Virus record (IMG/VR): IMGVR_UViG_3300024187_000007
Location: 2,131-66,130 of that record
Direction: 5' to 3' (one strand)
DNA: 64,000 nt
Origin: a virus
Lineage: Duplodnaviria; Caudoviricetes
Shown: positions 23,615-57,707 of the stretch, piece after piece
How positions within the stretch are numbered: position 1 is the first letter of the stretch
How the letters are laid out: the number at the start of each line of letters is the position of its first letter
Notes under the pieces: generated by a model
Told to the model about the DNA's origin: nothing
What the model saw: the letters and a program-made list of their open reading frames with translations, nothing else
Database searches by the model: none
Program-made: the position numbers and the translations under genes

Positions 23615-23849
23615 TGCTGCCTCCCAGCAGAACATGCTTCGCAAACACTGCGATCATGGTCAGGAAGCCCGAGCCGGCCGATCCCCAGATCCACTTGGTC
23701 TGCTTCTCGACGGCCTCAAGGCGGGGTTCGTGGTTGGCCGCCACCTCGGAGACCTTCTTGACATCCGTGCGGACCTCTTGGATGTCCAAACGAATACGGC
23801 CTTCCATGGCGTCCAGGTGGGCAATGATGTCGAACTCAGCGGCGGTCAT
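23604..23849 (-). CDS. holin-like protein (coiled coil plus single C-terminal TM segment)
   Basis: Heptad region then WIWGSAGSGFLTMIAVFA; lies upstream of the endolysin. Confidence 0.5.
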   Translation of the reverse strand: MTAAEFDIIAHLDAMEGRIRLDIQEVRTDVKKVSEVAANHEPRLEAVEKQTKWIWGSAGSGFLTMIAVFAKHVLLGGSSGR

Positions 23850-28396: not shown

Positions 28397-28762
28397 TTAC
28401 GCCTTCTGAGGAATGGGCAAGGTAAAGGCCCGGCCGGGGATAGGTGTCCCGCCCAGGCGGACCAAGAATGCGTCGACGTGGGCGGCCGGTGCATGAGTCA
28501 GGACGGAGGTGACACCAGCGGCCCCGAGATGCCCGAACATAGTCGAGAGCAGCAACTTGACGACGGCGGCCTTGCCCTGATGATCCGGGTGGACCCAAAA
28601 GCCTTCAAGATGGGGCAGGGCGACTACGGCCCATGTGCCGATGATCTGGCCGTCCCCGTCTTCCACGACCAGCAGTTGGCCCATCTCGGCCGGTTGGAGG
28701 TCCGCCCACGGAGTGCCGGCCAGTTTGGTCCATTCGTCCCGAGGCAGGAAGCGTACCGTCAT
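28397..28762 (-). CDS. GNAT-fold acetyltransferase-like protein
   Basis: LVVEDGDGQIIG, LEGFWVHPDHQGK, FLVRLG. Confidence 0.7.
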   Translation of the reverse strand: MTVRFLPRDEWTKLAGTPWADLQPAEMGQLLVVEDGDGQIIGTWAVVALPHLEGFWVHPDHQGKAAVVKLLLSTMFGHLGAAGVTSVLTHAPAAHVDAFLVRLGGTPIPGRAFTLPIPQKA

Positions 28763-29101: not shown

Positions 29102-32100
29102 TTAGAGGACGGCCGACCCGCCGCCGCTGCGGGCGGCCATTAGGCCGGAGTGGTGCATGCCTCTGGGCGTCATGTCGTCATTGCCGAAAGGCTGCAGGAG
29201 CTTCGTCTTGTCCGCACCCCACTCGCGGACGTAGAGCAGCGACTCCTCCCGGTAGAGCCAGAAGGCCGAGGCCGCCGTCCAGACGAACTTATAGAGCGTG
29301 CCCTTGTTCGCCGAGAAGGGGACATAGACCTTCTGCTTGGCCCCGCCGGTGGACGGAATGGTGTTGACCAACGTCGTCAACAGCGTGCCGTTCTGGCCGT
29401 AGACCGAAGTCGTCAATGTGACCGTCGCATTGGACTTGATCGTGACCCACGCGGCGGGACAGATCTTCCAGCCGGGCGTTTCCAGATCCAGCTCTTGGGT
29501 CTCCCACCGGGACAGAGCCAGCGGTTCCTCGTCGAAGATCCACTCCATGGAGTAGAGCCGGCCTGGATTGCTGTCGGTCGGGATCATGCGAAGGACGCGG
29601 CCGAGAGACTGAGCAAAGCTCACCTCCACGACCTTCCGACCGGTCGTGTTGACGGTCGTCGTGTTGACCACGACGCCGTCGACCTCGAAGGTGACCGTCT
29701 TGTTGGCCCCAAAGGTGTCGCATTCCAGCAGCGCCCCTTTGATCCACTTGTCCGAGAGGGTGCCCCCAATGGTGTAGTTCTGATTCCAGTTGGTCTGCAG
29801 ACCCGGCTCGGGATCGGACATCCACGTCCAGCTGTAGAGCAGACCGGGGTTGTCATCGGTGGCCCTGAAGCGAAACACCGATCCGCGGCCCGGCGGCTGC
29901 AGCGTCAGCTGCACCAGCTGGCGGCCAGAGGTCGTGACCGTCTGCGTCGAGACCAACGCTTGGTCGACATAGATCTCGATGGTCTTGGCCAAGCCGAAGG
30001 TGTCGCACTCGATGTTCAGCCCGGTGTAGTAGGCGTTCTGCTTGTTCTCGTAGTTGGAGTCCCAGCGGGTGATCCGCGGCGGCTCGGCTTGGGCGATCCA
30101 GCGGTAGTTGTACAGCTCCCACGGGGCACAGGTGCCTTCGGGCCGCAGCCGGACCATGTTGGCTTTAACCACGGGCCAGCTGAGCCACCACTTGTGACGG
30201 CCGGTGACGCCCGTCGGGTTGATCGTGAAGGGCGACCCGGTGGGTTCGCTGATCACGCCGTTGAGATCGTACTCGATGTGGACCAAGCGGCTGGCACTGC
30301 CGGTGTTGCAGTCGATCCAGACACCCGTCAGGTAGGTCTCGGCCTCGCCGGGGGTGTCCCATGCCGTCACGCGGTTCATAGTCACGTTGGGCTGTGGAAT
30401 GATGCTGATGCCGACCAGCTCAATGACTGGGCTGATCGCGGCCGATCCGGACCACGCCAAGTCAATGGAGATGTTGCGTCCCTGCTGGGGACCGTCTGTG
30501 GACGTGCCGAAGGCGTCAAAAATGAAGCGTTTGCGGCCAGCCAGCCCGACGACACTCTGCGAGCCGTCGGTGATGGTCTCGTTGTTCAAGAAGGCGGTCA
30601 GCGTCAACGTCGTGTTCTGCATGTCGGCATCCACGATGATGTCGCCGAACTCGGTGTTGCCTCGGGTGTAGCCAAAGTCCATCGCCCCGGTCCGCACTTG
30701 ACAGGCAATGGCCGTGCCGTTGTCGGACTGACCACTGTGCGTGTAGGTTGCACTGGCTGATCCGATCAGGAGCTGGAGGCCGGCGTCACCTTGGGTCAGG
30801 TCCGCGTAGACACACGACGGCAGATTGGCGAAGCTCACCTGCCGCCAGTAGTGGTAGATGGTCGAGTAGACCTGACAAATCAGGGTGCCGGCCGTGTCCT
30901 TGTAGATAAACCAGACGTCGTTATTGAAGGCCGCCAGCCGGATCGCCGACGGCTGCGTGAAGTCAATGGGGTTCAGGCCGTTCTTGGCCTGCCCGTTGAA
31001 CAGCGGGCGCAGCTGGTCCGAGACGATCACGGACTCGCCCCCCTTGGTCGCACGGACACCATCTTTGGCGACGTAGTAGACGCCGTCCGGGCCGACGCAC
31101 AGGCCCCAGTAGCTGGCCATGCCGGGCACACAGTCCGTGGGCGTGGCGACAAACCCGTTGGCGACACCGGCGAGATTGGTCGAGAGCAGGTAGCCGCGCT
31201 CCCGGCTGAAGACAAACGCTTGGCCGCCAAACACGGCCCCATTCATCAGCTCCTCGCTGGGCGCACAGACCTCCACCCAGTTGGCCGAGGGCCAGCTGTC
31301 CGGGACGCCGGGCTTACACCAGTAGACGGCTCCGGGCCGATAAGGGTCGCCACAGCCGAGCACCATGGCCGAGACGGGTCCCCAGATGGTCCGCAGCGGC
31401 TGGTTGTAGACGGCGTTGCCCGAGGCGTCGACGGTTGTCACTGGCTGGTCATTGTCGATCTCGACGGCTCCAGCGGCTTCGATGGTCGCGTCCGTGTTCT
31501 TGGCAATGGCCGGACTGACCGTCAGGTCAATGCCGTCGATGAAGTCACCGCCGTCTGAGGTGTTCGCCCCGCAAAAGAACCAGTCGTTGGTCAGCGTGCC
31601 GCCACGACGGTAGACCCGCTGGCGGATGGCCGGATCACCGTAGGCGGCCACTTGGACAAGGATTGGCTGCCGGTTTGAGTCGAGCTTGGCCGCATCGGCC
31701 TGCACATCCGAGGGATTCGACTCGGCCCCCGTCCGCGGATCGTAGTTGGTGGCCCGGTAGTCGAACGGGCTGTCCCCCGGCTCGGCGGAGTCGATCCCCG
31801 CGCCGCCTGTCAGGTAGATCTGCTGGAACTGGACATCGGTCGACACTTTGTCCGTCATCTGGATCGTGATGATGATGCCAGAGACCGTGTTCCAGTCGAG
31901 GGTCTCGTCCGCGCCAATGCGGGTGAAGTCTGAGCGTCGGCAGGGCAGGCCGATGGTGCCATAGGTCGAGCGGGCCTGTGCACCCAAGCTCATCGCCAGT
32001 GAGGGGAACGGTCCTGTGTCCTGCCCCGGCGCAGTCGATCCGTCGGCGTTGGCCGTGGCGAACTCGTCGATCAGCTGGTTCGTCCGGACCAAGTCGTTGA

Positions 32101-33049
32101 CGTCGATAGCCGTATTGCCGGCAAGGCTCACGAACCCTTGGAAGTCATTCGGCCGGAAGGCCTTAACGAACGCGTCGGTGTTCTTGGCAATGTCCGTGCC
32201 GGGGATGGTTCCTGCGGTGAACACCGACGTGCAGACCAGATAGAGGCGAATCTCGGCGATCTGGCCGGGATCGTTGGCCCACAAGCGCAGATGGAGTTCG
32301 TCGTCGTCCGTCGCCGTGACCGTGCCGCCGGCCAAGAGGCTCAGATTCACGGCCTTGGGCAGACTCATGATGGACGAGTAGCCGGTGGCCGCGGCTCCGG
32401 GGTGCGTCGTGAACACGACGGCCAGTCCGGAGGGATCGTCCGATGCTGTCGGAGGATCGGCGGCCACAGGTGGCGTCGACGTGTCCTCGCCGGCAGTCAT
32501 GGTCCACGCGGCGGCGTTGGTCCCGTCGCTGGCCGAGCAGGACGCGATCATCGTCAGGTACGTGTCGTAGATGGACGTCGTAGGAGTCGTCGGTTTCGGC
32601 AGGCCGATGGGCAGACGCGCGTCGGTCCGGTTGACCTTGGACATCCGCAAGCTGTCGGCGATGTACATGTAGCTCTGGCCAGAGAGCGGTGGCCGAAACG
32701 GGATCATGGTCAGGGGATTGCCCGAGTAACCGGTGTCGATGTTGTTCAACGCCCCTGACTGGCCACGTTGGAGGGTTGTCCCCACGCCGAACAGGCGCGT
32801 GAAGGTGGCGGCCTGTGGATCGTTGAGCCGCGCCATCGAGTGGTGGGTGCCCGCCGCGGTGGCCAAACTGGTCTGCCCCGGCCGCGTGAACAACTGGCCG
32901 CCCAACACGGGCACGACGTTCACCAGCCGCGAGGCTTCGGTCAGGCTCAGGACGTCCAGTGACTTCTTGATGTTCAGGCCGTCTTGACCAAGACGCAAAA
33001 TGACCGTATCAAACGGCGTGGCGTTGGCGCTAGGGGATTCAGAGGGCAT
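29102..33049 (-). CDS. tail hub/stabilisation protein (P22 gp10 / T7 tubular protein B-like), 1315 aa
   Basis: Beta-propeller-like WD/WS repeats, FDYRATNYDPRTGAESNPS Ig-like insert; position after the adaptors. Confidence 0.65.
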   Translation of the reverse strand: MPSESPSANATPFDTVILRLGQDGLNIKKSLDVLSLTEASRLVNVVPVLGGQLFTRPGQTSLATAAGTHHSMARLNDPQAATFTRLFGVGTTLQRGQSGALNNIDTGYSGNPLTMIPFRPPLSGQSYMYIADSLRMSKVNRTDARLPIGLPKPTTPTTSIYDTYLTMIASCSASDGTNAAAWTMTAGEDTSTPPVAADPPTASDDPSGLAVVFTTHPGAAATGYSSIMSLPKAVNLSLLAGGTVTATDDDELHLRLWANDPGQIAEIRLYLVCTSVFTAGTIPGTDIAKNTDAFVKAFRPNDFQGFVSLAGNTAIDVNDLVRTNQLIDEFATANADGSTAPGQDTGPFPSLAMSLGAQARSTYGTIGLPCRRSDFTRIGADETLDWNTVSGIIITIQMTDKVSTDVQFQQIYLTGGAGIDSAEPGDSPFDYRATNYDPRTGAESNPSDVQADAAKLDSNRQPILVQVAAYGDPAIRQRVYRRGGTLTNDWFFCGANTSDGGDFIDGIDLTVSPAIAKNTDATIEAAGAVEIDNDQPVTTVDASGNAVYNQPLRTIWGPVSAMVLGCGDPYRPGAVYWCKPGVPDSWPSANWVEVCAPSEELMNGAVFGGQAFVFSRERGYLLSTNLAGVANGFVATPTDCVPGMASYWGLCVGPDGVYYVAKDGVRATKGGESVIVSDQLRPLFNGQAKNGLNPIDFTQPSAIRLAAFNNDVWFIYKDTAGTLICQVYSTIYHYWRQVSFANLPSCVYADLTQGDAGLQLLIGSASATYTHSGQSDNGTAIACQVRTGAMDFGYTRGNTEFGDIIVDADMQNTTLTLTAFLNNETITDGSQSVVGLAGRKRFIFDAFGTSTDGPQQGRNISIDLAWSGSAAISPVIELVGISIIPQPNVTMNRVTAWDTPGEAETYLTGVWIDCNTGSASRLVHIEYDLNGVISEPTGSPFTINPTGVTGRHKWWLSWPVVKANMVRLRPEGTCAPWELYNYRWIAQAEPPRITRWDSNYENKQNAYYTGLNIECDTFGLAKTIEIYVDQALVSTQTVTTSGRQLVQLTLQPPGRGSVFRFRATDDNPGLLYSWTWMSDPEPGLQTNWNQNYTIGGTLSDKWIKGALLECDTFGANKTVTFEVDGVVVNTTTVNTTGRKVVEVSFAQSLGRVLRMIPTDSNPGRLYSMEWIFDEEPLALSRWETQELDLETPGWKICPAAWVTIKSNATVTLTTSVYGQNGTLLTTLVNTIPSTGGAKQKVYVPFSANKGTLYKFVWTAASAFWLYREESLLYVREWGADKTKLLQPFGNDDMTPRGMHHSGLMAARSGGGSAVL

Positions 33050-33052
33050 ATG

Positions 33053-33694
33053 TTACCACGCGCCGCTGACCCAACTACGGGCCAGTTCGACGCCTTCTTC
33101 AAAGCGCATCTCGCAGTAGGCGGCTCGGGGGACGTCCGCCAGCCGGCCGAGCTTGGTCAACATGTCGGCGATGACCCCGTACTTCAGGTATGGAATGAAC
33201 TCGTCCGGTGTGTTGAAGATCTCGCCCGAGCCGTCCAAGGTGTTGCCGAGGCTCACGTAGTACAAGCTGATTGTGCCCGGGCCGGTGGGTGCAGGAGCCA
33301 ACTGGAGCGCCAACGTGGGTGTCTCGCTGTCCATGTAGACCGTTGGCCGTGTAGCTGTCGCCGTGGCCCAAAGGGGTAAACCATTGTCCGCGGACCAACT
33401 GTCGGCCCTGGGCAGGTTCACGTAGGTCGAGCCTGACCCCAACCAGCTGGCCCGGACAGTCGCCACCCAGTCAACCGGCAGGGCCGGCCGTAGCTGTGCC
33501 GCGGTAACGGCAATTTGTGCCCAACTGATCAACAACTGGGATTCCTTCAAGAAGCGGTCCTGCCGCTGGTTGATGTACTGCAGGACCTCAGCTTGCGTCC
33601 ACATGGTGGAGGTCCACGTGACACCCCCGTCGATCGTCGGCTCCAAGAGGGCCGCTTGGATCTCGGACATCAGGGCTTGATCCGTGTAGGCCAT
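33053..33694 (-). CDS. head-tail adaptor/ring protein paralogue
   Basis: WTQAEVLQYINQRQ...IPYLKYGVIA pattern shared with neighbours. Confidence 0.65.
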   Translation of the reverse strand: MAYTDQALMSEIQAALLEPTIDGGVTWTSTMWTQAEVLQYINQRQDRFLKESQLLISWAQIAVTAAQLRPALPVDWVATVRASWLGSGSTYVNLPRADSWSADNGLPLWATATATRPTVYMDSETPTLALQLAPAPTGPGTISLYYVSLGNTLDGSGEIFNTPDEFIPYLKYGVIADMLTKLGRLADVPRAAYCEMRFEEGVELARSWVSGAW

Positions 33695-34398
33695 TAGAGA
33701 CGCTGTCCCGGCGTGGCCCGAGGGCCGGCCCGCAGCGGCAGCGCCTCACGGCCCTCGTCAATATTCAGCACACGCCGATACAAGCTGGAGGCCTTGAACT
33801 GCGCGTTGCGCTCGCCGGCGGCCGTGATCCACGACTTGTACAGGGGCATGGTCGACTCGAAGATCTCGCCCCCGAGTTTGAAGGCCGCCGCGTGGAGCGC
33901 GTAGCCCAGCAGCTGGTTGTGTTCCTCTTGGCCAAGGTCGACGAAGTCCCCCGGGTTGACCAGCACCGGGGTCTGCGCCATGCCGTCAATGGTCAGCGTG
34001 ACGCCCGGTGTGGAGGCCGGCCAGATGACGACCAGATCGATGGACACGGGTGCCCACATCTTGACCGTCGACGGACATCCCGTGGTCGTGGTCGTTTCGC
34101 CTTCCCAACTGGGCCGGCCACAGTCCAGCCCGATCAGGCTCGATGGGGCGACCACGGTGCCGTCTGGGAGCTGAAATCGGCTCTTGTAGGCCAAGACCCC
34201 GGGGATGGGAACGTAGTTGTCCCCGGGGGGTGCGTCGACCGTGGTCCGTTGCCGCCAATACCCCGTGATCGAGTTCCACATGTGCAGGCCCTCGTTCAGG
34301 GCCGTGCGTGCCTCCTCGTCAGACCAAAAGGGGACGTTGTCCCACTTGACCTTCAGTTCGGCTTGGAGCGTGGCGAGCGTGACTTGAGCAAAGGCCAC
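33694..34398 (-). CDS. head-tail adaptor/ring protein paralogue
   Basis: TLATLQAEL...WSDEEARTALNEG...HNQLLGYALH. Confidence 0.65.
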   Translation of the reverse strand: MAFAQVTLATLQAELKVKWDNVPFWSDEEARTALNEGLHMWNSITGYWRQRTTVDAPPGDNYVPIPGVLAYKSRFQLPDGTVVAPSSLIGLDCGRPSWEGETTTTTGCPSTVKMWAPVSIDLVVIWPASTPGVTLTIDGMAQTPVLVNPGDFVDLGQEEHNQLLGYALHAAAFKLGGEIFESTMPLYKSWITAAGERNAQFKASSLYRRVLNIDEGREALPLRAGPRATPGQRL

Positions 34399-34650: not shown

Positions 34651-36546
34651 CTAGATGGACTTGACCTGAATCATGACCGATCCGCCGCGCAGGCCGGTCA
34701 GGGTGCCGCCCATTTTGACGGCAATGCGGTTGCCTGCCGCGAATTGGAGGGTCGCGGTCGTTCCGGTCAGGGTATAGGTCGTGACGGTGTTGTTGGCCGT
34801 GGCATTGCAGTCGTAACTGCCGGTGCCCAGCACGGTGCCGGCCCCGGGGGCCGTCGTGCCCGTGAGCTTCTCGACGTCAATGACGCAGCCCCCAGCGCCT
34901 TGGGCTGTCTGGTTAATCTTGATGGACGTCACTTGGTATGCCCGGTCGAGGATGAAGTTGCAATCCCCGCTCAGGGTGTTCGCATCGAGGCCTTCGCAGT
35001 AAATGACACGCGTGTTCGGGATGATGTTGCCGCCAACCGTCAGCTTGTCCAGATCGGTGACGGCCGCGGTCTGACCGGCGGCTACGGTCAGACCGAGGTT
35101 GGCTGAGAGTAGGCCGGAGAATGTCCCAGAGGTCGCGGTCAGCGCCGTCATGCTGACCGTGCTGCTAAAGGCTCCGGTCGTAGCCGTCAGGGCGGTCATG
35201 GAGACGGTGCTACTGAACGCACCTGTAGTCGCGGACAGGCCGGCGGCCAAGGTGCCCGCGCCATTCTTGTCGACACTGAACTTGGAGACCCCAGCGATCT
35301 GGAGGTCTTCCAGCAGTGCGCCGGCGGACGAGTTCGTGTTGGTGACGTTGACCTTCAGCGCCGTGAAGGCGACACCCGCATTGTTCCATGTCTGGGTGAA
35401 CAGCCACGGGGTGTCTGCGACAATCGTCCCAGAGGCAAAACTCGACGAGCCGGCCGTCACAATGCCCTGGGCGTTAACCGTGACCAAAGGGTAGGTACCG
35501 GCCGTCACACCCGAGGTCGGGAAGTCGGCGTTGACCAGCGCGCGGAAGGCCGGTGCCACCGCACCGCCGCTTGTTGGACCAGCGAAGATCGTGTTGGCCG
35601 TCTGATTGGCTGCGGTCACCGCCAGCGTGCCGGAGGTCGTCACTGGACTGCCAGACACCGACAGAAACGCCGGTACCGACAGAGCCACGGATGTGACCGT
35701 CCCAGCCCCGGTGACCATGGACTGGGTAATGGTCGTCGCAGCCCACGCCGCGCCGTTCCACATGGGAACTTGGTTCGCCGAGGCTCCGTTCTGCGCCCAC
35801 CGGTTGAACAACAGCGTGGCCGCGGCCAGATCACCGGTCACCACTGATCCAGTCAGACTCAACTTGGCATATGTAATGCCGGCCCCACCAGCGATGTCCG
35901 CGTTGACAATACTGTTGCTCAGAGCCAACTTCGAGTAGGCAATGGCGGCCGAGGCCGAGATCTGCGCGTTGGCAATGTTCGCCAGCTGGGCCAGCGGCAC
36001 GGTGCCTGAGGCCAAGTTGGACGCGTTCAAATTGGTCAGGTTGACACCACTAATGGCTGGGAGCGTGCCTGTCAGGTTGGCAGCCGTCAGGCTGGTCAGC
36101 CCGGAACCGTCGGTGCCCCACGCGGCGTCGGTGCCGTTGGAGACAAACACGGTGTGATTCGCCCCGACGGTCAGGGCAGCCCACTTAGGTGTCGAGTTGG
36201 CGACAATGACGGATCCACGGACCGGACTGCCCGTGAGCGTATCCGGGTGCGTCGTGGACAGCAGGTTGTGCGGTGTGACGCCGCCGCCCGCGCCGGCGAT
36301 CAGGCCGCCGTTGAAGTAGAGGTTGCCCGACGTGTCCGCATAGATGCGATAGGTTGTGATCGACGGGATGGCCGAGTTCGTCACCCGCAGGTCGGCGAAG
36401 GTGTTCGTGGTCGTCCAGCTATTGCCTCCCACGCGGGTCAGCAGTTGCAGGACCTGATTGCTGAGCGTGCCCTGCGCGCCCAACGGGATATAGCCGATCC
36501 CGATGACCAGCGCCGCGGTAATAACCAGTCGTTTGATCCAGTGCAT
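34651..36546 (-). CDS. fibre-like protein with N-terminal signal peptide
   Basis: MHWIKRLVITAALVIGIGYIPLGA|Q; body has fibre repeats (GTVTSVALSVP..SGSPVTTSGTL; ATTGAFSSTVSMTALT x2) and a Cys-containing C-terminal domain. Confidence 0.75.
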   Translation of the reverse strand: MHWIKRLVITAALVIGIGYIPLGAQGTLSNQVLQLLTRVGGNSWTTTNTFADLRVTNSAIPSITTYRIYADTSGNLYFNGGLIAGAGGGVTPHNLLSTTHPDTLTGSPVRGSVIVANSTPKWAALTVGANHTVFVSNGTDAAWGTDGSGLTSLTAANLTGTLPAISGVNLTNLNASNLASGTVPLAQLANIANAQISASAAIAYSKLALSNSIVNADIAGGAGITYAKLSLTGSVVTGDLAAATLLFNRWAQNGASANQVPMWNGAAWAATTITQSMVTGAGTVTSVALSVPAFLSVSGSPVTTSGTLAVTAANQTANTIFAGPTSGGAVAPAFRALVNADFPTSGVTAGTYPLVTVNAQGIVTAGSSSFASGTIVADTPWLFTQTWNNAGVAFTALKVNVTNTNSSAGALLEDLQIAGVSKFSVDKNGAGTLAAGLSATTGAFSSTVSMTALTATTGAFSSTVSMTALTATSGTFSGLLSANLGLTVAAGQTAAVTDLDKLTVGGNIIPNTRVIYCEGLDANTLSGDCNFILDRAYQVTSIKINQTAQGAGGCVIDVEKLTGTTAPGAGTVLGTGSYDCNATANNTVTTYTLTGTTATLQFAAGNRIAVKMGGTLTGLRGGSVMIQVKSI

Positions 36547-36555
36547 GAGATCCTC

Positions 36556-37218
36556 TTAGGCTTGATACCCGTAGCCGGCAGGGACCGTCACAGGGGTCGT
36601 CGTGTCGGTACAGGCTTGCCCGCCACCTGCCGGTGTGGGAAACGGCAGACAGGCTGTGGCATAGGTGACTAACAGGTAGTACCAATCGACAAAGTACTGG
36701 TTGATGTAGGGATGTCCCGAGGGAACGGCTTGCATCTCCAAGCTGAACTCTGTCGCCTGCAACAGATCGGGCGTCCAGAGACCGCCACCCGGTTCGGTGA
36801 GCATCTCCGGCCCCTGCTGCGTCACGAACACTTGACTGGCCAAGGAGATATCCCACAGCGTCGTCAGGTTGGTGTTCGACGGCCGCTCGGCAGTCGCTCT
36901 TACCGGTACTGGTGCCGTGTCAGCGACCGTAATCGGATTCCGGCGATGCTGCGCCACAGCGGTCACCGAGAGAATCGTACCACCGGCCACTAAGAGCGCC
37001 AACTCAGCCATGTTGGCGGCGTTCGGGGCAAATCGGAGGCGTGGCTGCACCACCTGCGACGATTGTGCCGAACAGACCTGCCCATCGCCAGCGGCAAAGA
37101 CGGCACGTCCATAGTCGAAAAACGTCGCAGCCCACAAGCCACTAGTCCGGCCTTGATCACCGGGTGGAATGCCACCGAATTGGTTATCCCATGCGAACGG
37201 GAGATTATACGTCGGCAC
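36556..37218 (-). CDS. putative virion structural protein
   Basis: Beta-rich; located in the tail/fibre module. Confidence 0.55.
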   Translation of the reverse strand: MPTYNLPFAWDNQFGGIPPGDQGRTSGLWAATFFDYGRAVFAAGDGQVCSAQSSQVVQPRLRFAPNAANMAELALLVAGGTILSVTAVAQHRRNPITVADTAPVPVRATAERPSNTNLTTLWDISLASQVFVTQQGPEMLTEPGGGLWTPDLLQATEFSLEMQAVPSGHPYINQYFVDWYYLLVTYATACLPFPTPAGGGQACTDTTTPVTVPAGYGYQA

Positions 37219-37224
37219 AGCAGA

Positions 37225-38346
37225 TTACCGCGGAAAACAGATCCCCGTGACTTTGTCTCCAGCCGTGAACGATCCAATCAGGTCGGTGTGGGTCGTATCC
37301 ACAGGCGTCGTCCGCACCGCCACCGTGGTCGTGCTGTCATTGGCGGAGCAATCATATTCAGTGGGCGCGGCGACGGTAAACGCCACCCGGCACTGCGATC
37401 CGGATGTGGCTCCCACGGTAATCACAAAGGCATTGTTATTTCCGGCAATAGTCGCGGCGGTGGTCCCGCACGAGTTCGCGCCGACGTTCGCAACGGCCAT
37501 GCCCGAGCCGTTGGACTGATAGGTCGGACCTGACAGAACCCCTCCAGAGGTCAATGTCATTTGCGTCGTCCACGAGGACGCACTGTTGATGGTGTCTCGG
37601 AACAGCAGCGACGAGGTAGTGGTCCCGGCGACTGTGACGGGGACATTCTGGAGTGCCCACCGGTCAGTCTCAGCCGCCGCACCGCTGCTGTTCCACGCGG
37701 ACCCGTCCAGCGTCAGCATGGGCGACCGCTGTACGGTTACGCCCGCTGTTGCGACAGGCACACCGCTGACGAGCGCATCCCCAACAACATCCGTGGCCTC
37801 AACGCCGTGTGTGATGTCGCTGACACGAAATACGGAATGGGTCCATGCGCCGTTCCCGGTGATGGCCAAGAGTTTCGCGTCACACACCCCAGACGCGGTG
37901 TTGCAAAACCAGAAGGCTTGATCACCGCCGGCAACGGTAGCGAAGCTGGTCTTCTCTGCGTAAAACAACATCGCAGGCCACGTGGTCTGGATGTTTGAGA
38001 ACGCCCCGAGCGTCATCGCCGCTTGTGTGGGGGTCGCGGACTGATCCCAACCGTACAGAATCTGTCCGTAGCCGTCACCTTGAGAATTGTTGCCCTGCTG
38101 GCCAAGGAGGTTGTTAGTGGACCCGGCCCGGAATGTGAACCAGTACGCGTCGTTTTTGAATGTCTGGGCACCGGTCCACGTCTGCGCACCGGTCCATGTA
38201 TGCGCACTCACCACAAAGGAACGCAGTGCGGCTTGGATCTGTGCCGAGTAGGGGCCACTCTGGGCGAACACAGGAGAGAATGTCGCTATGTTCAGGATCA
38301 TTGCCACCACAAGGGCAGCACCCACAACTTTGATCCAACGCGTCAT
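37225..38346 (-). CDS. fibre-like protein with N-terminal signal peptide
   Basis: MTRWIKVVGAALVVAMILNIATFSPVFA|Q; HTWTGAQTWTGAQTF fibre repeat; six Cys. Confidence 0.72.
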   Translation of the reverse strand: MTRWIKVVGAALVVAMILNIATFSPVFAQSGPYSAQIQAALRSFVVSAHTWTGAQTWTGAQTFKNDAYWFTFRAGSTNNLLGQQGNNSQGDGYGQILYGWDQSATPTQAAMTLGAFSNIQTTWPAMLFYAEKTSFATVAGGDQAFWFCNTASGVCDAKLLAITGNGAWTHSVFRVSDITHGVEATDVVGDALVSGVPVATAGVTVQRSPMLTLDGSAWNSSGAAAETDRWALQNVPVTVAGTTTSSLLFRDTINSASSWTTQMTLTSGGVLSGPTYQSNGSGMAVANVGANSCGTTAATIAGNNNAFVITVGATSGSQCRVAFTVAAPTEYDCSANDSTTTVAVRTTPVDTTHTDLIGSFTAGDKVTGICFPR

Positions 38347-38350
38347 GGAG

Positions 38351-38953
38351 TTAGACCTTTTTCCCGATACCATGGACAACCTCAAACGGCCGATTCGCGG
38401 CCATGATTGCAACACCGCCGGGGTTGACCCCGGTCGGCTCTGGACTCAAATCGTCACCGGCCAGATCTGTCGGCGCGTCGTCCCCGTCGGCTTCTTGCCA
38501 CGCTTTGGCCGTCATGATGGGGCGGCCGTGGGTGACCATCACGATGGTCTTGGTCGAGTGGTAGAACGGCAGCAGGAACCCGATGAACCGCTTGGCGAAG
38601 ACCTCAAAGGACTCGCCTCCGGGGACGGCCTTTGATGGGGTCTTCATCATGTAGTACTCGACCGCGGGAGCCACGTCCTTGATCCGCTGGCCGGCAAAGT
38701 CGCCGAGGTTCCACGTGGCCAACCCTGTGGTCGTCGTGACGTCGGCCCCGGTCACCTTGGCAATCTCGTCGGCCATCAGCCGCGTTCGCTTGGAGCTGTC
38801 CGTGTAGATGTGATCGACCGCGATGCCCTTGAAGTAGCGAGCCGTATCCTTGGCAATCTGCACCCCCTCCGGAGGCACCGGCGGATCCAGCTGGCCGCGG
38901 ACTTTGCCGGCTTTGTTCAGCTTGGTCGGAGGGTGCCTGACCAGGATGATCAT
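38351..38953 (-). CDS. histidine phosphatase (phosphoglycerate mutase-like) family protein
   Basis: LVRHP (RHG-like), RGQLDPP, SSKRT, GGES, VTHG. Confidence 0.88.
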   Translation of the reverse strand: MIILVRHPPTKLNKAGKVRGQLDPPVPPEGVQIAKDTARYFKGIAVDHIYTDSSKRTRLMADEIAKVTGADVTTTTGLATWNLGDFAGQRIKDVAPAVEYYMMKTPSKAVPGGESFEVFAKRFIGFLLPFYHSTKTIVMVTHGRPIMTAKAWQEADGDDAPTDLAGDDLSPEPTGVNPGGVAIMAANRPFEVVHGIGKKV

Positions 38954-38964
38954 GGGCCTCGCCC

Positions 38965-39435
38965 TTAGTACACCGGCTGCGCGATACGGCCCTTGACCTG
39001 CACCGCGCCAGCATCGTTCGCCAGCTTGGATACGGCATTGCGGTTGAGCAGCGTCAGATGGAGCTTGCCAGCCTTGTCGGCGTCGAAGTAGGGGATATCC
39101 AGCCCGTCGATGTAGTACTGGAAGTCACCCGTGCCGGCCTTCTGAACGGCGTCGCCGGCCACAAACGTCCAGCGACCAATCCAGTTGGAGCCGGCCGCCG
39201 TGACAGCTGCGGTCAGGGTCGAATGGGTCGCGGACTGCCAGAGCCAGAGTTCCCAGTCGAGGTTCTGGATGCTGACAATCGTGAGGGACTTGATCGTCCC
39301 CCACGCCGTCCCGTTGATGCCTTGCAGCGTTGGCGGCAGAAGGAAGTCCAGATCGACGCCGGCGTTCTGGGCTAGTGCCCCCCTGAACTGGGTCGACGGA
39401 TCGGTGCCGAAGCTGTATTCGTAGACAGCGGACAT
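38965..39435 (-). CDS. putative virion structural protein
   Basis: Beta-rich 156 aa in the morphogenesis operon. Confidence 0.55.
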   Translation of the reverse strand: MSAVYEYSFGTDPSTQFRGALAQNAGVDLDFLLPPTLQGINGTAWGTIKSLTIVSIQNLDWELWLWQSATHSTLTAAVTAAGSNWIGRWTFVAGDAVQKAGTGDFQYYIDGLDIPYFDADKAGKLHLTLLNRNAVSKLANDAGAVQVKGRIAQPVY

Positions 39436-39445
39436 GGGCTACCTC

Positions 39446-39670
39446 TTACTTGACGGCGTCAGGCGTCATGCCCCCGCGCTTGATCGGCCCAGTGAGCTTC
39501 GGGTCGCCGGCGACGTTGTCGCGGTAGACCTCGGGCAGGAGGCCACCCTCACGCTGAGGCAGGTTGATGCCCTTTTCCATGTCGTAGGTCTTGTTGCTGG
39601 AGCCGCGCTGGGGGACGGTCGACTTGCCGATGGCGTCCTTGAACGGGCTGTTTTTGATGACACTGGCCAT
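39446..39670 (-). CDS. small hypothetical protein
   Basis: AGGAG RBS; operon packing. Confidence 0.6.
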   Translation of the reverse strand: MASVIKNSPFKDAIGKSTVPQRGSSNKTYDMEKGINLPQREGGLLPEVYRDNVAGDPKLTGPIKRGGMTPDAVK

Positions 39671-39672
39671 GA

Positions 39673-40149
39673 TTAGATCTCCTTGGCTACTGGACCTTTG
39701 CGGTTCAGTGCCCTGATTCGATTATACGCATCTTGTCTGCAGGCAGCAACCTCTGGAGGCATAGGGTTCTTTTTGCACCAGCGGCCACGTTTGTTTGTGT
39801 TCCACCCAGCCTCACCATCCCACGTGTCAATGACAATCTCTGCCTGTAGACGTTTTCCGACAAGGTACGGAAGAACCTGCTTCAGTAACTTGACCCCATC
39901 CAATCCCCTCCAGTGAACTAACCATGTAGGCTTCTGACGATCGGGGTGGCGGTTGTAGAAGTACTCACCAAACGGTACATCTACGTTATCCCTAATCCAC
40001 TGAACCAGCAACTCGTTGGTATTTGCAAATTGTACAAAAGGCCTTACAAAATAACCAGTTGTGCCATCTGCTTTTTTTGGGCCGGACAGAGATATAGTAC
40101 CCTCTCCGTCAATTAAACCTGCAAGATAAGCAAGGTGTTCGGACGTCAT
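39673..40149 (-). mobile_element. free-standing LAGLIDADG homing endonuclease
   Basis: HLAYLAGLIDGEGTI motif, VQFANTN..L; segment clearly more AT-rich than flanks. Confidence 0.88.
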
Positions 40150-40187
40150 GCCAAACAGCGTACCACGCCTGCAAAGTTTTGTCAACC

Positions 40188-41114
40188 CTACACAGCATGA
40201 CTTTGTAAAAAGTTCGCGCTGAGCGGTGCCCACGGCCAGCCGTACCAGTCGGTGTCGGACAGCCATGTCATGTAGATTTCTTCGTCTTGGCGTTCCAAGT
40301 CGACCATCTTATCCTCGAACTCGGCGAGGTAGGACCGGCGGTTGTATTCGGCGTTTGGCCCGGACGCCATGAGGTTTGGCTGATCGGCGACCCCCGGCCA
40401 TCGACACAGATCCGCCAAGGCCCGGCTGACGATGACGTCCGATCGGATCGGCCAGATGGGCGTGTCCGTGTCGTTGACGAGGTCGGCCGCCTGCTTGGTG
40501 TAGAAATAGCTGACCACCCGCTGGGACGTCGAATACGGCCATGCCTCGTACTGGACCACGCCAGAGCTATTGTACCGGCGGTCGACCAACGCGTAGGGCA
40601 GGCCGAAGAAGTTGCGCTGCGGATCCCACCGCAGCAGCTGGTCTTGGGTCACCCAGTGGCGGAGCTTGTAACCGGTCTGCGGGTCGACCGCCACAATCAA
40701 CTTCTTGAAGTCCGTCGGCATCGTGACGTAGCCGTCGAAGATCGTAAAGCTCAGCCCCGAGGCCGAGGCAATCCCGATGGCTAAATCCGTCGTCAGGGTC
40801 TGCAGGCCGACGTCAACCGCGGTGATGGTGTAGATAGGTGACCCCACCCCGGCCTTGAACTGACGGCCGACGTCAGTTGACGCAAACGTCGTCCCGCTGC
40901 CCGTGACGGTGGTCGAGTTGTTGACGACTGTCACCGTGCCGGTGGTCTTCTGGTTCTGGAAGAGGATCTGATTCTCGGCCCGTAGCCCGGACCACGGCCT
41001 CCGGTCACAAATCTGCCGATAGGCGTCCCGGATGAACTGCTGAGCGAGAAAAATGTCAAGGCTCGGACAATAAAGCCTGAGCGACCTTGACATCTCAAGG
41101 AAGTTATTGGCCAT
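40188..41114 (-). CDS. head-tail adaptor/ring protein (largest paralogue, with beta-rich insert)
   Basis: AQQFIRDAYRQIC..RPWS...Y.MP.DF...YEAWP...Y.Y pattern; insert GTVTV.NNSTTVTGSGTTF. Confidence 0.65.
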   Translation of the reverse strand: MANNFLEMSRSLRLYCPSLDIFLAQQFIRDAYRQICDRRPWSGLRAENQILFQNQKTTGTVTVVNNSTTVTGSGTTFASTDVGRQFKAGVGSPIYTITAVDVGLQTLTTDLAIGIASASGLSFTIFDGYVTMPTDFKKLIVAVDPQTGYKLRHWVTQDQLLRWDPQRNFFGLPYALVDRRYNSSGVVQYEAWPYSTSQRVVSYFYTKQAADLVNDTDTPIWPIRSDVIVSRALADLCRWPGVADQPNLMASGPNAEYNRRSYLAEFEDKMVDLERQDEEIYMTWLSDTDWYGWPWAPLSANFLQSHAV

Positions 41115-41132
41115 GTTGTCCGAGCCTCGTGG

Positions 41133-41957
41133 TTAGTTCGTGGTCGAGCAGCCGGTGGCCAGTGATCCTGACCCGTAGTTGATGCCTTCCAGCCAGATGG
41201 CCGTGGCGCTCTGCACCGTGGCCCTCAGCTTCGTGCCGATGACACCGCCGGTGGTCGTGCCGTTGGTCTTGTACGCGATGTGGGTCGATCCGTTGCAGAC
41301 GTCCGCACGTGACGTCGCCGTGGCCGACAGTTCGATCGGCACACCAGACAAAAAGTGCGCCGCGTTGCCACTTTCAATCTCATGCGAGTTCGAGGTGACT
41401 GACGTCGTGACAACGAAGTCGTAGGTACAGCCAGCGGCTGGTAGCGTCGAAGGCAGGATGTAGACCACCCCGGTGGCCGCGTCCAAGTTGAACGCCCCGC
41501 CGCACTGCGCGGCCGTGAGCGTCACCGGCGAGCCACCGAGCGACGCGCTCGACACCGGAATCGCCATGGTCGCCGACAGGCCTGAACTGACCGCCGGAGC
41601 CGTCATCGTCGTGCCGTCCGTGCCGGCCAACGTGATGCTATTGCTGACCGTGAAGGTCTTGCCGGCCGCGATGGACAGCACAAACGCGTCGCCACCCTGC
41701 AGTGTGCCGCTGTTGCTCACGGTGAGCGTCTTGTTCGCGGCAATCGCCAGCGTGTTGCCGTCACCGCCGGCGATGGTGCTGGACGACGTGGTCGTCAGCG
41801 TCTTGCCCGCGCCGAGGGTCAGCGTACCGGTGCCCGTGGTGATGGTGTTCCCGTTGATGGTACCGCCACCACCGATATTCTGGGCCTTGACGCTGGGAAA
41901 CGGGATGGCCAACGCCAACGCCACTGCCAGGGTCAGGCCATAAAGGTACTTCTTCAT
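41133..41957 (-). CDS. head-fibre-like protein with N-terminal signal peptide
   Basis: MKKYLYGLTLAVALALAIPFPSVKA|Q; Thr/Gly-rich repeats (AxKTLTVSNS); C-terminal TLTAAQ.G..F.LD...LP...G..YDF domain with four Cys. Confidence 0.72.
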   Translation of the reverse strand: MKKYLYGLTLAVALALAIPFPSVKAQNIGGGGTINGNTITTGTGTLTLGAGKTLTTTSSSTIAGGDGNTLAIAANKTLTVSNSGTLQGGDAFVLSIAAGKTFTVSNSITLAGTDGTTMTAPAVSSGLSATMAIPVSSASLGGSPVTLTAAQCGGAFNLDAATGVVYILPSTLPAAGCTYDFVVTTSVTSNSHEIESGNAAHFLSGVPIELSATATSRADVCNGSTHIAYKTNGTTTGGVIGTKLRATVQSATAIWLEGINYGSGSLATGCSTTN

Positions 41958-43049: not shown

Positions 43050-44081
43050 TTAGCCGTTGATACCGAACAACACGCGCATCAGGCGGGGAGCCTGGTTCGT
43101 CACGTTGCCCGAGAAGAAGTACTGGCCCGCCACGACCGTCGAATCCTGCGCCGGCTTGAAGCCGCTGAATCCGAAGCCGAATTCCGGGTCGTTGGTCACG
43201 TACATGCGCAGGTACTTCGTGTTGAGGTAGTGGATGGTTTCGCCCGAGAGCGCGGCGTTGGCACCCAGCGAGCTGTCCACCGTCGAGACCACCGAGCCAG
43301 GCGCGTACTGCGACTGGATGACCATCGAGGCGTTAAACTTCAGGCCGTTGAAGCCGATGTTCGGATCCTGCGTTTCCGTACGCCACTGGGGCTGGAACTT
43401 CTCCTTGATGTACGACATCCCGAGGTTCGTCGTCACCATGAGGTTCGGATGCTCGTCGCCGATGACGACCGAGTTGTACGCCTCTTCGAGGATCTTGTAA
43501 GTAATCGGGCCGGCGACGTTCGCCGTCGGGCCGGTCATGGGCGAGTTCAGCGCCGCCCCAATCGTGCCGTTGCGGGAGAGCGTACCGTACGTCGTGTACG
43601 TGTTGCTGTCCCACTGCGCGGTGGTGCCATCGTTCAGCTGTTCGGCGAAGCCGTTGAGCTGGAGCGCGCGGGCCGCCGTCTGGCCGTTCTGGTAGAGGGC
43701 CAGCGCCAGCCGGGCCGACATCGTCAGCGCCGCGTTCTGGAGACGGCCATCGATCAGGCGGAACACCATCTGCGGACCCTTGTTGAAGATCTGGATCTGC
43801 TCCTTGGCGATGGAGACCGGCACGTAGTACAGCTTCGGGATGAAGCTCGCGCCCGTTTCCACCTGCGAGATGGTGATGGGGAACGTGTCACCGATGGCGT
43901 ACGCGCCACCGCCCAGCGGGGCGTAGATGAAGTTCTCCTGAATCAGCGTGCCGCCATCGAAGGTTTCGATGTTGTTCTTTTTGAGATACGCCAGCGTCGG
44001 GTCGTTCTTGAAAACCTCGTCAACGAGGCCGGGAACGATCTTGCGACGTGTGGACGTATTCAGCTCGTCCAAAAATGCCAT
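43050..44081 (-). CDS. major capsid protein (HK97 fold)
   Basis: 343 aa after the scaffold; F.GG..IQE.FIY, PNLMVT, IGFNGLKF..S.VI, YLNTKYL, N...APR. Confidence 0.85.
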   Translation of the reverse strand: MAFLDELNTSTRRKIVPGLVDEVFKNDPTLAYLKKNNIETFDGGTLIQENFIYAPLGGGAYAIGDTFPITISQVETGASFIPKLYYVPVSIAKEQIQIFNKGPQMVFRLIDGRLQNAALTMSARLALALYQNGQTAARALQLNGFAEQLNDGTTAQWDSNTYTTYGTLSRNGTIGAALNSPMTGPTANVAGPITYKILEEAYNSVVIGDEHPNLMVTTNLGMSYIKEKFQPQWRTETQDPNIGFNGLKFNASMVIQSQYAPGSVVSTVDSSLGANAALSGETIHYLNTKYLRMYVTNDPEFGFGFSGFKPAQDSTVVAGQYFFSGNVTNQAPRLMRVLFGING

Positions 44082-45942: not shown

Positions 45943-47904
45943 TTAGGAGGTGGACGTCACTACACGGCCGTCGCCCTTCTGTTGCTGCTTGGGCGGCTGG
46001 TCATTCGTGGCCTTCCGACCTTGGGCGGAGACCGCCCCGACCAGTCCGATAGACTGGGCAAGGATCAAGCGGTCCGTGATGGTTGTGGCATCGCCGGGAG
46101 GCGCGCCACCGTTGGGAATCTCCAGCACCTCGAACAGGGTCCACGGGTCCATGAGGCCACCCTGCCACAGCTGCATGTAAGTCAGCTTCCGGCTAATCTG
46201 GCTGATGGCCAGCAGGCTGTTCGGCGTGATCTGGAACGTGAACTGTTTCATGTGGTGCTGGGCGCGGTTCGACTTCTCCAAGCGGTTGTCGTACTTGGGG
46301 TCGTAGCCCTCGTCGCCCTCGGACATGGACGGAATCATGTTGCCCGGGTCGAAGTCGAAGTCGGCGAAGTCCAGCCCGGCCTCGCCCAAGATCGAGATGC
46401 GGCGGCTCATGTTGTAGAACTGAAAGAAGTTGCACTTCACCATTTCGCCAACCTCACGGAGGAATACTTCCATGAGACGACCTTTGAGGCGCAGTACCGG
46501 CGATAACGCCTCTTGGAGCCGTTCGACCGAGTCGGCCCCGGGGGCCTGATTCAGCTGGGTCAGGGCGTTGAGATTGGCTACGTCCGCGTGGTAGTCCATC
46601 TCGGACACGGCCATCTTGAGCATGTCAAAGACGTAGGACGGCAGCTGCGGGGCTTCCGTGAACTCCAGACCCTTTCCCAACTGGGCGTTGATCTTGGCCT
46701 TCAGGCCAGGCATCCGGGTGTCGATCGACTGCCACTGGGACTCCGGCACCGCCCGGCGATCGGCAATCACACCCGGCCGCAGGGCCTTTCGGCAGGCATC
46801 CAGCGTGCCGTTGATCAGCTCGTTGACCGTGTCCTGCAGGGGCATGAGGTCGCGGACGAGGCTGGCCCCCAGCAGGCCCCACGGCCACGGGTCAAGGGTC
46901 AGTTTGGCAATGGGGAACATCCCATGCCAGTAGGGGTTAGGGCCGTCCCAGAGAACTGCAGTCCGGGTGGAAATAATCAGACGGCCACGCGGATACAGTC
47001 GGCACTCGGACTTGTCGATGATGTGGCCATCCTCAGGGGCTTCCTTGCCGACCATGTTCACGGGGTACACCTTGTACGACCAGTTGGTTCCCGGCTCGCC
47101 CATGATGATAGCTTCAGACCCGATGTGAAAGCGGCGGTCTTTGATCCAGCAGTTGAACAGATCGACTGTCGGGACGCGCTTGACGGCGTTCTGTGGCGCG
47201 GCCGTGAGGGTGTCCACAGGGGCTGGTGTCACCAACGCCGACATCAGCCGGCGTGCCCGGCTCCATGTCCGGTTGAACATGGACTGATCCCGGTCCGGCC
47301 GAATCAGATGGGCCTTCTCTGGGAACCGCGCTTGCAGTTCATTGATGGTTTTGGCCGAGCGGACAATGACCCCTTCCCAGTCCTGAATGGAATGGGTCAT
47401 GGTCGGCTTATAGGGCAAGACGTCTCGTGGGTCGCGGGGGATCAGCTTGACGTCGCCAATGCCGTTCCACGCATCGGGCATCCACTGGACTTCACAGTAG
47501 CCGGTCCCTGGGACGGCCGAGTAGCGCAGGACGTCGGCCAGCTGGACGTCACAGAAGTTGTTGACCCACCACGCCTGCGTCAGCTTCCAGAGGACCTCGT
47601 TCTGCTGCTGAAACTGGTTGTTGAAGGTCTTGAAACCGAAGAGGGGATGGATATCCGTCAGGGCGGCGATGGACTGTAGAACAATGTGCTTGGTCCGGTT
47701 GTCCGTGATGGACGACAGCATGGGCGAGCGTTTCGGGTCCAGCTGATCGCCCATAACGTACTGGATGCACCGCTCCATGTCCTCGTACATGGGATCGGAC
47801 TTGAGGATCGCTTCGCCGTCAATCACCGCGCCGTCCAGCCACTGAAGCATGGCATGTTCGTACGCCGAGGTCGTCTCGGGCAGGGGAAGTGCGTCCATCG
47901 CCAT
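45943..47904 (-). CDS. portal protein
   Basis: 653 aa between terminase and scaffold; G..GTGY.EV.W, P.D...P, W.GPNPY.HG.FP...L, P22-like architecture. Confidence 0.85.
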   Translation of the reverse strand: MAMDALPLPETTSAYEHAMLQWLDGAVIDGEAILKSDPMYEDMERCIQYVMGDQLDPKRSPMLSSITDNRTKHIVLQSIAALTDIHPLFGFKTFNNQFQQQNEVLWKLTQAWWVNNFCDVQLADVLRYSAVPGTGYCEVQWMPDAWNGIGDVKLIPRDPRDVLPYKPTMTHSIQDWEGVIVRSAKTINELQARFPEKAHLIRPDRDQSMFNRTWSRARRLMSALVTPAPVDTLTAAPQNAVKRVPTVDLFNCWIKDRRFHIGSEAIIMGEPGTNWSYKVYPVNMVGKEAPEDGHIIDKSECRLYPRGRLIISTRTAVLWDGPNPYWHGMFPIAKLTLDPWPWGLLGASLVRDLMPLQDTVNELINGTLDACRKALRPGVIADRRAVPESQWQSIDTRMPGLKAKINAQLGKGLEFTEAPQLPSYVFDMLKMAVSEMDYHADVANLNALTQLNQAPGADSVERLQEALSPVLRLKGRLMEVFLREVGEMVKCNFFQFYNMSRRISILGEAGLDFADFDFDPGNMIPSMSEGDEGYDPKYDNRLEKSNRAQHHMKQFTFQITPNSLLAISQISRKLTYMQLWQGGLMDPWTLFEVLEIPNGGAPPGDATTITDRLILAQSIGLVGAVSAQGRKATNDQPPKQQQKGDGRVVTSTS

Positions 47905-57524: not shown

Positions 57525-57707
57525 ATGAGCCGGTCGAGACTGTGGCTGCTGCTGGCTGTGTTGTCCACTGGCTGTCGCGCCACGTCGCCCAAGTGTGTAA
57601 CCGTGCCGACCCCATGGATCGACTACGGCTACGTCATGGGCGCGCGCTACGTGGTCAGCACGCGAGTGGTCCCGATCACCGTGTGCTACTACAAGGTGAC
57701 ACCCTGA
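57525..57707 (+). CDS. small putative lipoprotein
   Basis: MSRSRLWLLLAVLSTG|C lipobox-like signal. Confidence 0.55.
   Translation: MSRSRLWLLLAVLSTGCRATSPKCVTVPTPWIDYGYVMGARYVVSTRVVPITVCYYKVTP

Follow-up and report, generated by a model that had tools for sequence, protein, structure and literature searches.

Leader-bearing, fibre-like proteins in the late operon of an uncultured soil podovirus and their possible maturation outside the cytoplasm

In the textbook account, assembly of tailed phages is wholly cytoplasmic, and both the gp17 fibre of T7 and the fibres or spikes of the adaptor-plus-spike podoviruses K1-5 and SP6 are leaderless and assembled in the cytoplasm. Here we describe three genes, denoted SP1, SP2, and SP3, of an uncultured short-tailed soil phage (IMG/VR virus record IMGVR_UViG_3300024187_000007; 66,130 bp, rated ~99% complete, GC content ~62%), each of which codes for a fibre-like protein with a leader resembling those handled by the general secretory (Sec) system and signal peptidase I. 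The window that we analysed comprises 64,000 bp of that record (positions 2,131 to 66,130). SP1-SP3 are unlike T7 gp17 in that leaders are present and the Phage_T7_tail attachment domain is absent (no Pfam match in any of the three). The gp17-type anchor is found here as a separate protein of 98 amino acids (aa), on which separately encoded receptor-binding proteins could dock. Our literature searches recovered no paper describing Sec-exported tail fibres of tailed phages.

Exported fibres are known from a cellular predator. The MAT fibres of Bdellovibrio bacteriovorus (Caulton et al. 2024; PDB 8onf, 8ond, and 8ol4) comprise a signal peptide, a conserved N-domain, and variable tips (PMC10769870). 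SP1 has the same order of parts, from signal peptide through a conserved N-terminal part to a variable C-terminus, and the likeness is one of architecture only. MAT fibres differ from SP1-SP3 in being encoded by the cell that displays them on its own surface, and most of them have a terminal S74 chaperone-protease domain, of which SP1-SP3 show no sign (no Pfam match to Peptidase_S74). The fold match between MAT fibres and SP2 is weak and is not accompanied by sequence similarity to the solved MAT chains (C-terminal domains); profile searches against PDB sequences, those chains included, gave no match. The jelly roll formed by residues 505-631 of SP1 resembles PBSX XepA and SPbeta YomS (PDB 6i56 and 6i5o; Z 8.1-8.2), of which XepA is named an exported protein. 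Unlike SP1, however, XepA belongs to the lysis cassette of a Gram-positive element, and the jelly-roll match is generic, with a Z value of the kind rated common.

In Bacteroidota, the Q-rule describes Gln placed right after the signal peptidase I site, with a pyroglutamate cap against aminopeptidases as the proposed benefit (PMC5837995, PMC10653852). Phages of Porphyromonas gingivalis code for Q-rule proteins without assigned function; these were suggested to alter the surface of the host, and their description does not present them as fibres (PMC10367356). SP1-SP3 share the Gln at +1 with Bacteroidota Q-rule substrates and differ from them in host, which is probably not a member of the Bacteroidota. 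Classical leaders also occur in proteins of the cultured Cellulophaga phages phi10:1 (gp091-gp094; KC821618) and phi18:3 (gp085-gp087; NC_021794), where they end in ...AQ↓T, ...GQ↓N, or ...SQ↓V, and the records annotate these proteins as structural 'based on experimental MS/MS proteomics analysis' of virions. Similar to SP1-SP3, these are tail-end late proteins with classical leaders; in contrast to SP1-SP3, they belong to phages of a Bacteroidota host and have few Cys (0-3), and their records are silent on leaders and cleavage. They provide the only experimental hint, by analogy, that leader-bearing late proteins can occur in purified virions. Q-rule phage proteins without assigned function (PMC10367356) and exported cellular MAT fibres (PMC10769870) are therefore already known, and what would be new here are phage fibres with a different maturation route, in a probably non-Bacteroidota setting, and a clean co-variation of Cys and leader.

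Leaders, cysteines, and fold of SP1, SP2, and SP3

The original prediction for this DNA had placed three proteins with a basic n-region, a hydrophobic core, a small-x-small site, and Gln at +1 in the virion module, and all three open reading frames (ORFs) and their N-termini were recovered on the minus strand where they had been placed. K or R is present within the first 7 residues of 3/3 proteins, the hydrophobic cores comprise 14 (SP1), 12 (SP2), and 11 (SP3) residues, and positions -3 to -1 followed by +1 read L-G-A↓Q, V-F-A↓Q, and V-K-A↓Q, respectively. A ribosome-binding motif (AGGA/GAGG-type) lies 5-8 nt before each leader ATG, and the ATG of SP2 is 4 nt past the stop codon of the upstream gene. 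The GC content at third codon positions (GC3), used as a coding signal, is 0.80 in SP1, 0.70 in SP2, and 0.84 in SP3. Searches of Pfam, PHROGs, and NCBIfam identified no family for the three proteins. When all ORFs in the window were screened by a crude scan, no further long protein with a comparable leader came up, and the only short candidates were a bitopic membrane protein of 68 aa and a possible lipoprotein of 60 aa.

Searches over 5.8 billion proteins, with 8000 candidates scored per query (E<=1e-3), identified 817 homologues of SP1, 170 of SP2, and 98 of SP3. The original prediction had called for such a survey, and the leaders proved to be conserved: they are present in 112 of the 118 SP1-family and 114 of the 117 SP2-family homologues with a complete N-terminus, and those leaders are followed by a small-x-small↓Q site in 107/112 and 102/114 cases, respectively. 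Such frequencies are well above what chance would give. Leader statistics were compiled from 66 SP1 homologues anchored on the conserved mature motif. Among these, pairwise identity is 15% in the leader versus 71% in the first 20 mature residues, the mean net charge before the core is +1.9, the mean Kyte-Doolittle value of the core is 2.1, and acidic residues occupy only 10 of 1188 leader positions, while position -1 is A in 45/66 and G in 13/66 and position +1 is Q in 51/66. The leaders are Sec/signal peptidase I-like since their features are kept while their sequence drifts, ending in a conserved cleavage motif, and this supports the view that they behave as true Sec/signal peptidase I signals across whole families.

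A motif shared by SP1 and SP2 after the cleavage site had also been claimed, and this part held up less well. Profiles of the two families could be aligned across the leader and the ~25 residues at the mature N-terminus (hhalign probability 83%, E 9e-6), a score that is partly due to the leaders themselves, and comparison of SP1 with SP2 by BLASTP gave an E value of 0.004. A shared N-terminal module is thus moderately supported.

Cysteines map to the distal domains of all three proteins, as predicted (SP1 residues 517, 529, 554, and 580; SP2 residues 148, 155, 293, 319, 333, and 370; SP3 residues 152, 177, 221, and 270). The number of Cys in the predicted mature part is even in 286 of 291 leader-bearing, Cys-containing homologues versus 32 of 64 leaderless ones (binomial p ~1e-77, a value inflated by relatedness), and homologues without any Cys make up 2/293 of the leader-bearing but 24/88 of the leaderless proteins. 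Four columns of the SP3 C-terminal domain read CCCC in 20/20 leader-bearing members and are never Cys in 10/10 leaderless members, all from short phage proteins, where they are S/T, L/T/V/M, G/A/P, and F (Fisher p 3e-8); all of these Cys/leader counts are inflated by shared ancestry and may stand for few events. The occurrence of one domain both with and without leader and cysteines provides a clean internal control. The gain of paired Cys in leader versions fits folding in an oxidising periplasm. Collectively, the leaders and Cys patterns are strong, if indirect, evidence of export, so that SP1-SP3 almost certainly fold outside the cytoplasm, and disulfide bonding of the exported proteins is strongly implied.

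The bodies of SP1-SP3 had been described as fibre-like, and we accept this description on the evidence of modelled folds. The SP2 model has a confident C-terminal beta-sandwich (predicted local distance difference test score, pLDDT, ~90), and its best BFVD matches carry the annotations T7 tail fibre, collagen-repeat, or tail fibre (E 2e-5 to 1e-3), with an uncultured-phage 'T7 tail fibre protein' on top (E 2e-5). The best matches of SP2 in a Foldseek search of the PDB are Bdellovibrio MAT fibres (E ~0.01), and the matches given by VIA-align include pyocin and phage receptor-binding tips (Z 5.4-6.0). The SP1 jelly roll resembles domains of phage baseplate, cement, and tail-fibre proteins in addition to XepA/YomS (Z 8.0-8.7); tip matches with Z values of 5.4-8.7 fall in the range that the alignment tool rates common. 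Nearly all Atlas look-alikes are viral, with Phage_fiber_2 and Mtd_N clusters among them, and the repeats of SP3 are common to ordinary leaderless phage fibre-type proteins that are its distant relatives. A leaderless, Cys-free relative of the SP3 C-terminal domain was also identified on a 66.5-kb crAss-like contig (L113, 8001-8615), where it adjoins Crass_capsid and CrAss_Ring_3_4 genes; because of these neighbours, the SP3-type C-domain would be a virion-module element in an unrelated phage lineage as well.

A conservation map of SP1 reveals that residues 25-370 are conserved and that the part beyond is variable, as is typical of a receptor-binding protein that docks through its N-terminus. 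The last ~100 residues of SP2 are up to 87% identical in proteins that are otherwise unrelated. Searched alone, this C-domain was recovered in 351 clusters (50% identity) among 1.84 billion representatives, always at the extreme C-terminus, and its family (P0339-P0391) combines four conserved Cys and an ...AGDxVxxxCxxR end with many unrelated N-terminal modules. Nearly all of these proteins have leaders. The domain may serve in sorting, docking, or lectin-type binding; it has no match among Por/type IX secretion system (T9SS) sorting-domain models (NCBIfam and Pfam, E<=1).

Host affiliation and the Gln at +1

Gln is present at +1 in 3/3 window leaders and after the site in ~90% or more of phage-family members. 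The original prediction had tied this residue to the Q-rule of Bacteroidota. A Bacteroidota host is unlikely because of the 62% GC content, Shine-Dalgarno motifs before 25/34 genes (74%, versus a background of 16%), and the lack of an excess of the Bacteroidota O-glycosylation sequon D-[ST]-[AILVMT]. In addition, the closest match in species-representative genomes (58% identity over residues 4-370) is on a 48.6-kb phage-like contig in a Gemmatimonadales metagenome-assembled genome (MAG), a binning link only and the sole clue to the host. A capsid search of 401 Gemmatimonadota genomes yielded only 3 matches, all on phage-like contigs, and thus no prophage link to a host. Considered together, these features suggest that the host is probably not a member of the Bacteroidota. 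Of the original proposal of export for periplasmic disulfide folding, the part concerning export is supported, in that leader conservation and Cys statistics fit disulfides formed after export, and the Bacteroidota link does not.

Five Gemmatimonadales genomes (G001, G011, G022, G041, and G068; L020-L052 and L116-L155) were screened with a crude predictor for the residue that follows the best -3/-1 site; samples G003 and G012 were left out as too small or atypical. Gln was the commonest residue in all five (22-36%), and the controls gave 45% Gln in Chitinophagales and 17% Gln, with Ala on top, in a gammaproteobacterium. The any-site measure of the same test gave 76/242 versus 9/61. These values are no more than suggestive of a Q-bias outside Bacteroidota, in signal-peptide-like N-termini of Gemmatimonadales. 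High values in some non-Bacteroidota FCB lineages, e.g., Ignavibacterium, are given in the Q-rule paper (PMC5837995). The plant-type glutaminyl cyclase family had no match in the Gemmatimonadales MAG, and Peptidase_M28 had matches in every genome searched, a family match that does not single out a cyclase. VKOR, a disulfide-forming oxidoreductase, is encoded in 5/5 Gemmatimonadales genomes examined. The Gln at +1 is real and need not reflect the Bacteroidota Q-rule; its selection may owe more to a benefit for the fibres themselves, in the form of a stable pyroglutamate cap.

A proposed two-compartment route and its alternatives

We propose, with a probability of roughly one half, that the fibres are exported, complete their maturation in the periplasm, and are added to the particle when the cell lyses. 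The host Sec system would take SP1-SP3 across the inner membrane, signal peptidase I would cut after the small-x-small site, and the N-terminal Gln left by cleavage could cyclise to pyroglutamate. Folding in the periplasm would then yield disulfide-bonded, fibre-like, and probably trimeric proteins. The rest of the particle would be built in the cytoplasm, and the two pools would mix when the envelope opens at lysis. SP1 and SP2 might dock via the strongly conserved stretch at the start of the mature protein, with the T7-type anchor or the adaptors as possible sites, and SP3 might dock via its C-terminal domain, a relative of leaderless virion-module proteins. Sec export and the signal peptidase I cut are shown in form by the architecture and conservation of the leaders. 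Among the functions proposed for these proteins, addition at lysis appears most likely. The link to the virion is drawn because the genes are inside the head-tail operon with conserved synteny and SP1 evolves as fibres do, and because no host-encoded copies were seen among the matches listed, the T7-type anchor stands alone, and a small membrane protein gene follows SP1. We extend this more tentatively to a soil podovirus clade in which heads and tails would be cytoplasmic and all long fibres would be Sec-exported, disulfide-bonded, capped, and snapped onto a pre-installed anchor at lysis.

Several observations weigh against addition at lysis. The leader and cleavage-site calls come from home-made scans rather than from a trained predictor, and the SP1 model is poor (mean pLDDT 61, as a monomer). 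The modularity of SP2 is reversed relative to a classical fibre, with a conserved C-terminus and a variable N-terminus. The co-variation of Cys and leader may reflect a single evolutionary event. The Cellulophaga proteins are unrelated to SP1 and SP3 (tblastn against phage records returned nothing), and their detection in virions by mass spectrometry could include co-purifying envelope material. A related contig, L159, codes for a 302-aa leaderless T7-type fibre, so that the clade may not need the exported proteins for adsorption. Finally, the cellular MAT fibres offer, by analogy, an example of exported fibre-like trimers that function at the surface of a cell (PMC10769870).

The last two points also favour an alternative in which export and processing take place as above but the proteins do not become part of the particle, and instead act on the envelope of the infected cell, by masking or binding receptor material against the trapping of progeny on debris, by superinfection exclusion, or as surface fibres like MAT adhesins. 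MAT fibres are the only family of Sec-exported, phage-fibre-like trimers described so far (PMC10769870) and top the PDB matches of SP2, a role in modifying the host surface has been put forward for Q-rule proteins of P. gingivalis phages (PMC10367356), the tip of SP1 is similar to XepA, the 'exported protein' of PBSX (Z 8.1), and the leaderless fibre of L159 could serve adsorption in their place. We nevertheless regard an envelope role as the less likely reading, though it is the main rival to addition at lysis. The genes are inside the head-tail structural operon rather than with early or lysis genes, SP1 evolves like a virion-docked receptor-binding protein, and a late-expressed exclusion factor would have little time to act in a lytic phage. 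Among the matches listed, none was a host-encoded copy of the conserved docking parts, and no listed SP1-family match was on a contig > ~75 kb. Moreover, an additional secretion step would be required to bring the proteins to the outer face of the outer membrane, and the scans for a T9SS-type sorting domain were negative. Leaders that remain uncleaved, either as signal-anchors at the periplasmic face of the inner membrane or as N-terminal helices for trimerisation or attachment, are improbable. In the AlphaFold models the leaders are helical, the gene beside SP1 codes for a small bitopic membrane protein, and cleavage is here a prediction from sequence; yet the cores of 11-14 residues are short for a membrane span, the conservation of small residues at -3/-1 and of Gln next to a core that is free to vary is the signature of a cleavage site, and a cytoplasmic attachment helix would not explain the even-cysteine rule. 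It is more improbable by far that wrong start codons or frames generated the leaders. A GC3/GC2 filter does drop the three ORFs and keep antisense ORFs, but this loss is a GC2 threshold effect of Thr/Gly/Ala-rich proteins with a GC3 of 0.70-0.84, and hundreds of homologues were independently called with the same leader and conserved mature start. Ribosome-binding motifs precede the leader ATGs, and the sequences listed contain no alternative start codon near the mature N-terminus. Taken together, homologue leaders, GC3, ribosome-binding motifs, and leader statistics effectively refute such an artefact.

If fibres do pass through Sec and join the particle at lysis, tailed-phage morphogenesis would involve a second compartment and a step that follows lysis, and export-dependent maturation of fibres could be a general and overlooked route that is not confined to Bacteroidota hosts; the present case extends the pattern beyond Bacteroidota-type phages. 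Such a route would explain disulfide-stabilised, exopeptidase-resistant host-recognition gear in environmental phages and would make the host's export and oxidative-folding machinery a determinant of host range. Receptor-binding proteins of metagenomic phages might then be better expressed in the oxidising periplasm for structural work and engineering.

The late operon and neighbouring genes

The three leader genes belong to the late gene set of a lytic podovirus whose portal is of the P22 type and whose adaptors are of the SU10 type. The minus-strand late operon (Table 1) begins with a split terminase, the portal, a scaffold-like gene, and the major capsid protein, followed by two small head-associated genes, SP3, a 308-aa adaptor-like gene, and a LAGLIDADG endonuclease. 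Its middle part comprises a 156-aa gene, a histidine phosphatase, SP2, a 220-aa gene, SP1, and the 68-aa membrane protein. Two SU10-adaptor-type genes, a 1315-aa nozzle-sized protein, and the 98-aa T7-tail-anchor protein come next, and the operon ends with a GNAT gene, presumed internal proteins, an XhlA-like gene, and an M15 endolysin. The SP genes are placed inside the head-to-tail part of the operon because the adaptor-type genes are just downstream, and their position between capsid and adaptor genes is kept in the related contigs L002 and L159. Counterparts of the two adaptor-type genes in both relatives also match SU10_adaptor, as does a 292-aa protein of L002 at the position of the 308-aa gene, i.e., the counterpart of the latter is adaptor-like. 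Neither megablast nor tblastn against cultured phage records yielded a match for the region, SP1, or SP3. Judged by capsid protein, the nearest isolates are Tunturiibacter and Myxococcus phages (~28% identity), which have a different tail module, and tRNA genes were looked for in the window and none were found.

Table 1. Positions of SP1-SP3, their parts, and neighbouring late genes in the window (position 1 is its first letter).
Feature	Positions	Strand	Basis or description
Portal	45943-47904	-	P22_portal match
Major capsid protein	43050-44081	-	phrog_9953 match
SP3, 274 aa	41133-41957	-	ORF and translation; Gly/Thr-rich repeats
SP3 leader, residues 1-25	41883-41957	-	MKKYLYG, 11 hydrophobic residues, PFPSVKA↓Q
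SP3 C-terminal domain, residues ~140-274	41136-41540	-	4 Cys
Leaderless gene between SP3 and SP2, 308 aa	40188-41114	-	Weak PHROG tail-fibre matches, residues 57-137
SP2, 373 aa	37225-38346	-	ORF and translation; variable N-terminal and middle part
SP2 leader, residues 1-28	38263-38346	-	MTRWIK, 12 hydrophobic residues, NIATFSPVFA↓Q
SP2 conserved C-terminal beta-sandwich domain, residues 270-373	37228-37539	-	4 conserved Cys
SP1, 631 aa	34651-36546	-	ORF and translation
SP1 leader, residues 1-24	36475-36546	-	MHWIKR, 14 hydrophobic residues, PLGA↓Q
SP1 conserved N-terminal region, residues 25-~370	35437-36474	-	Conservation map
SP1 jelly-roll domain, residues 505-631	34654-35034	-	End of variable C-terminal part; all 4 Cys
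Bitopic membrane protein directly downstream of SP1, 68 aa	34402-34608	-	Basic N-terminus, one transmembrane helix
Two adaptor-type genes	33694-34398 and 33053-33694	-	PF24175 SU10_adaptor, E 1.2e-7; phrog_399 structural protein
Leaderless protein, 98 aa	28796-29092	-	Only the end of the T7 gp17 N-terminal (tail-attachment) domain

Fibre assembly factors are usually encoded right after the fibre gene. Small transmembrane proteins follow the SP1 homologue in L002, L003, and L159, the motif NYNIQQG is common to the 68-aa window protein and its L159 counterpart, and ~40 residues of the window protein are predicted to be periplasmic. By its gene position only, this protein is a candidate membrane-anchored fibre assembly factor. 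The 98-aa protein matches Pfam Phage_T7_tail with 25.7 bits (cut-off 25.2; E 1.1e-5), and the same stretch is matched by 24 PHROG tail fibre/spike families, which makes it a candidate docking adaptor on the tail. The gene at this position codes for the 302-aa leaderless fibre in L159 and for 88 aa in L002.

A small GNAT acetyltransferase gene (28397-28762, minus strand) comes directly after the gene of the 98-aa protein, and a GNAT-like gene is at the same place in L159. The 1315-aa protein (29102-33049, minus strand) has no family match; by eye, its C-terminal half has repeated modules (…ECDTFG…TVxFEVDG…), which may be receptor-binding domains on the tail itself. A histidine phosphatase (38351-38953, minus strand; His_Phos_1, E 1.6e-24) is encoded in the structural operon directly upstream of SP2, and its counterpart in L159 (294-896) comes directly after the portal. 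The LAGLIDADG-type homing endonuclease gene (39673-40266, minus strand; weak Pfam match, PHROG 'HNH endonuclease' 7e-14) has a GC3 of 0.49, as opposed to 0.7-0.88 for the neighbouring genes, and shares 79 nt with the 3' end of the 308-aa gene. It has the appearance of a mobile element that was inserted recently into the virion module.

The M15-type endolysin (phrog_465, 4e-20) and a nearby 81-aa protein with a weak XhlA match (E 0.0025), encoded at 22581-22955 and 23604-23849 on the minus strand, probably form the lysis cassette with which the late operon ends; neither a clear holin nor a clear spanin pair could be recognised. The 60-aa ORF recovered in the leader scan (57525-57707, plus strand) is far from the lysis genes, starts with MSRSRLWLLLAVLSTGC, and has a lipoprotein-type signal with a lipobox-like LSTGC, making it a candidate outer-membrane spanin or exclusion lipoprotein.

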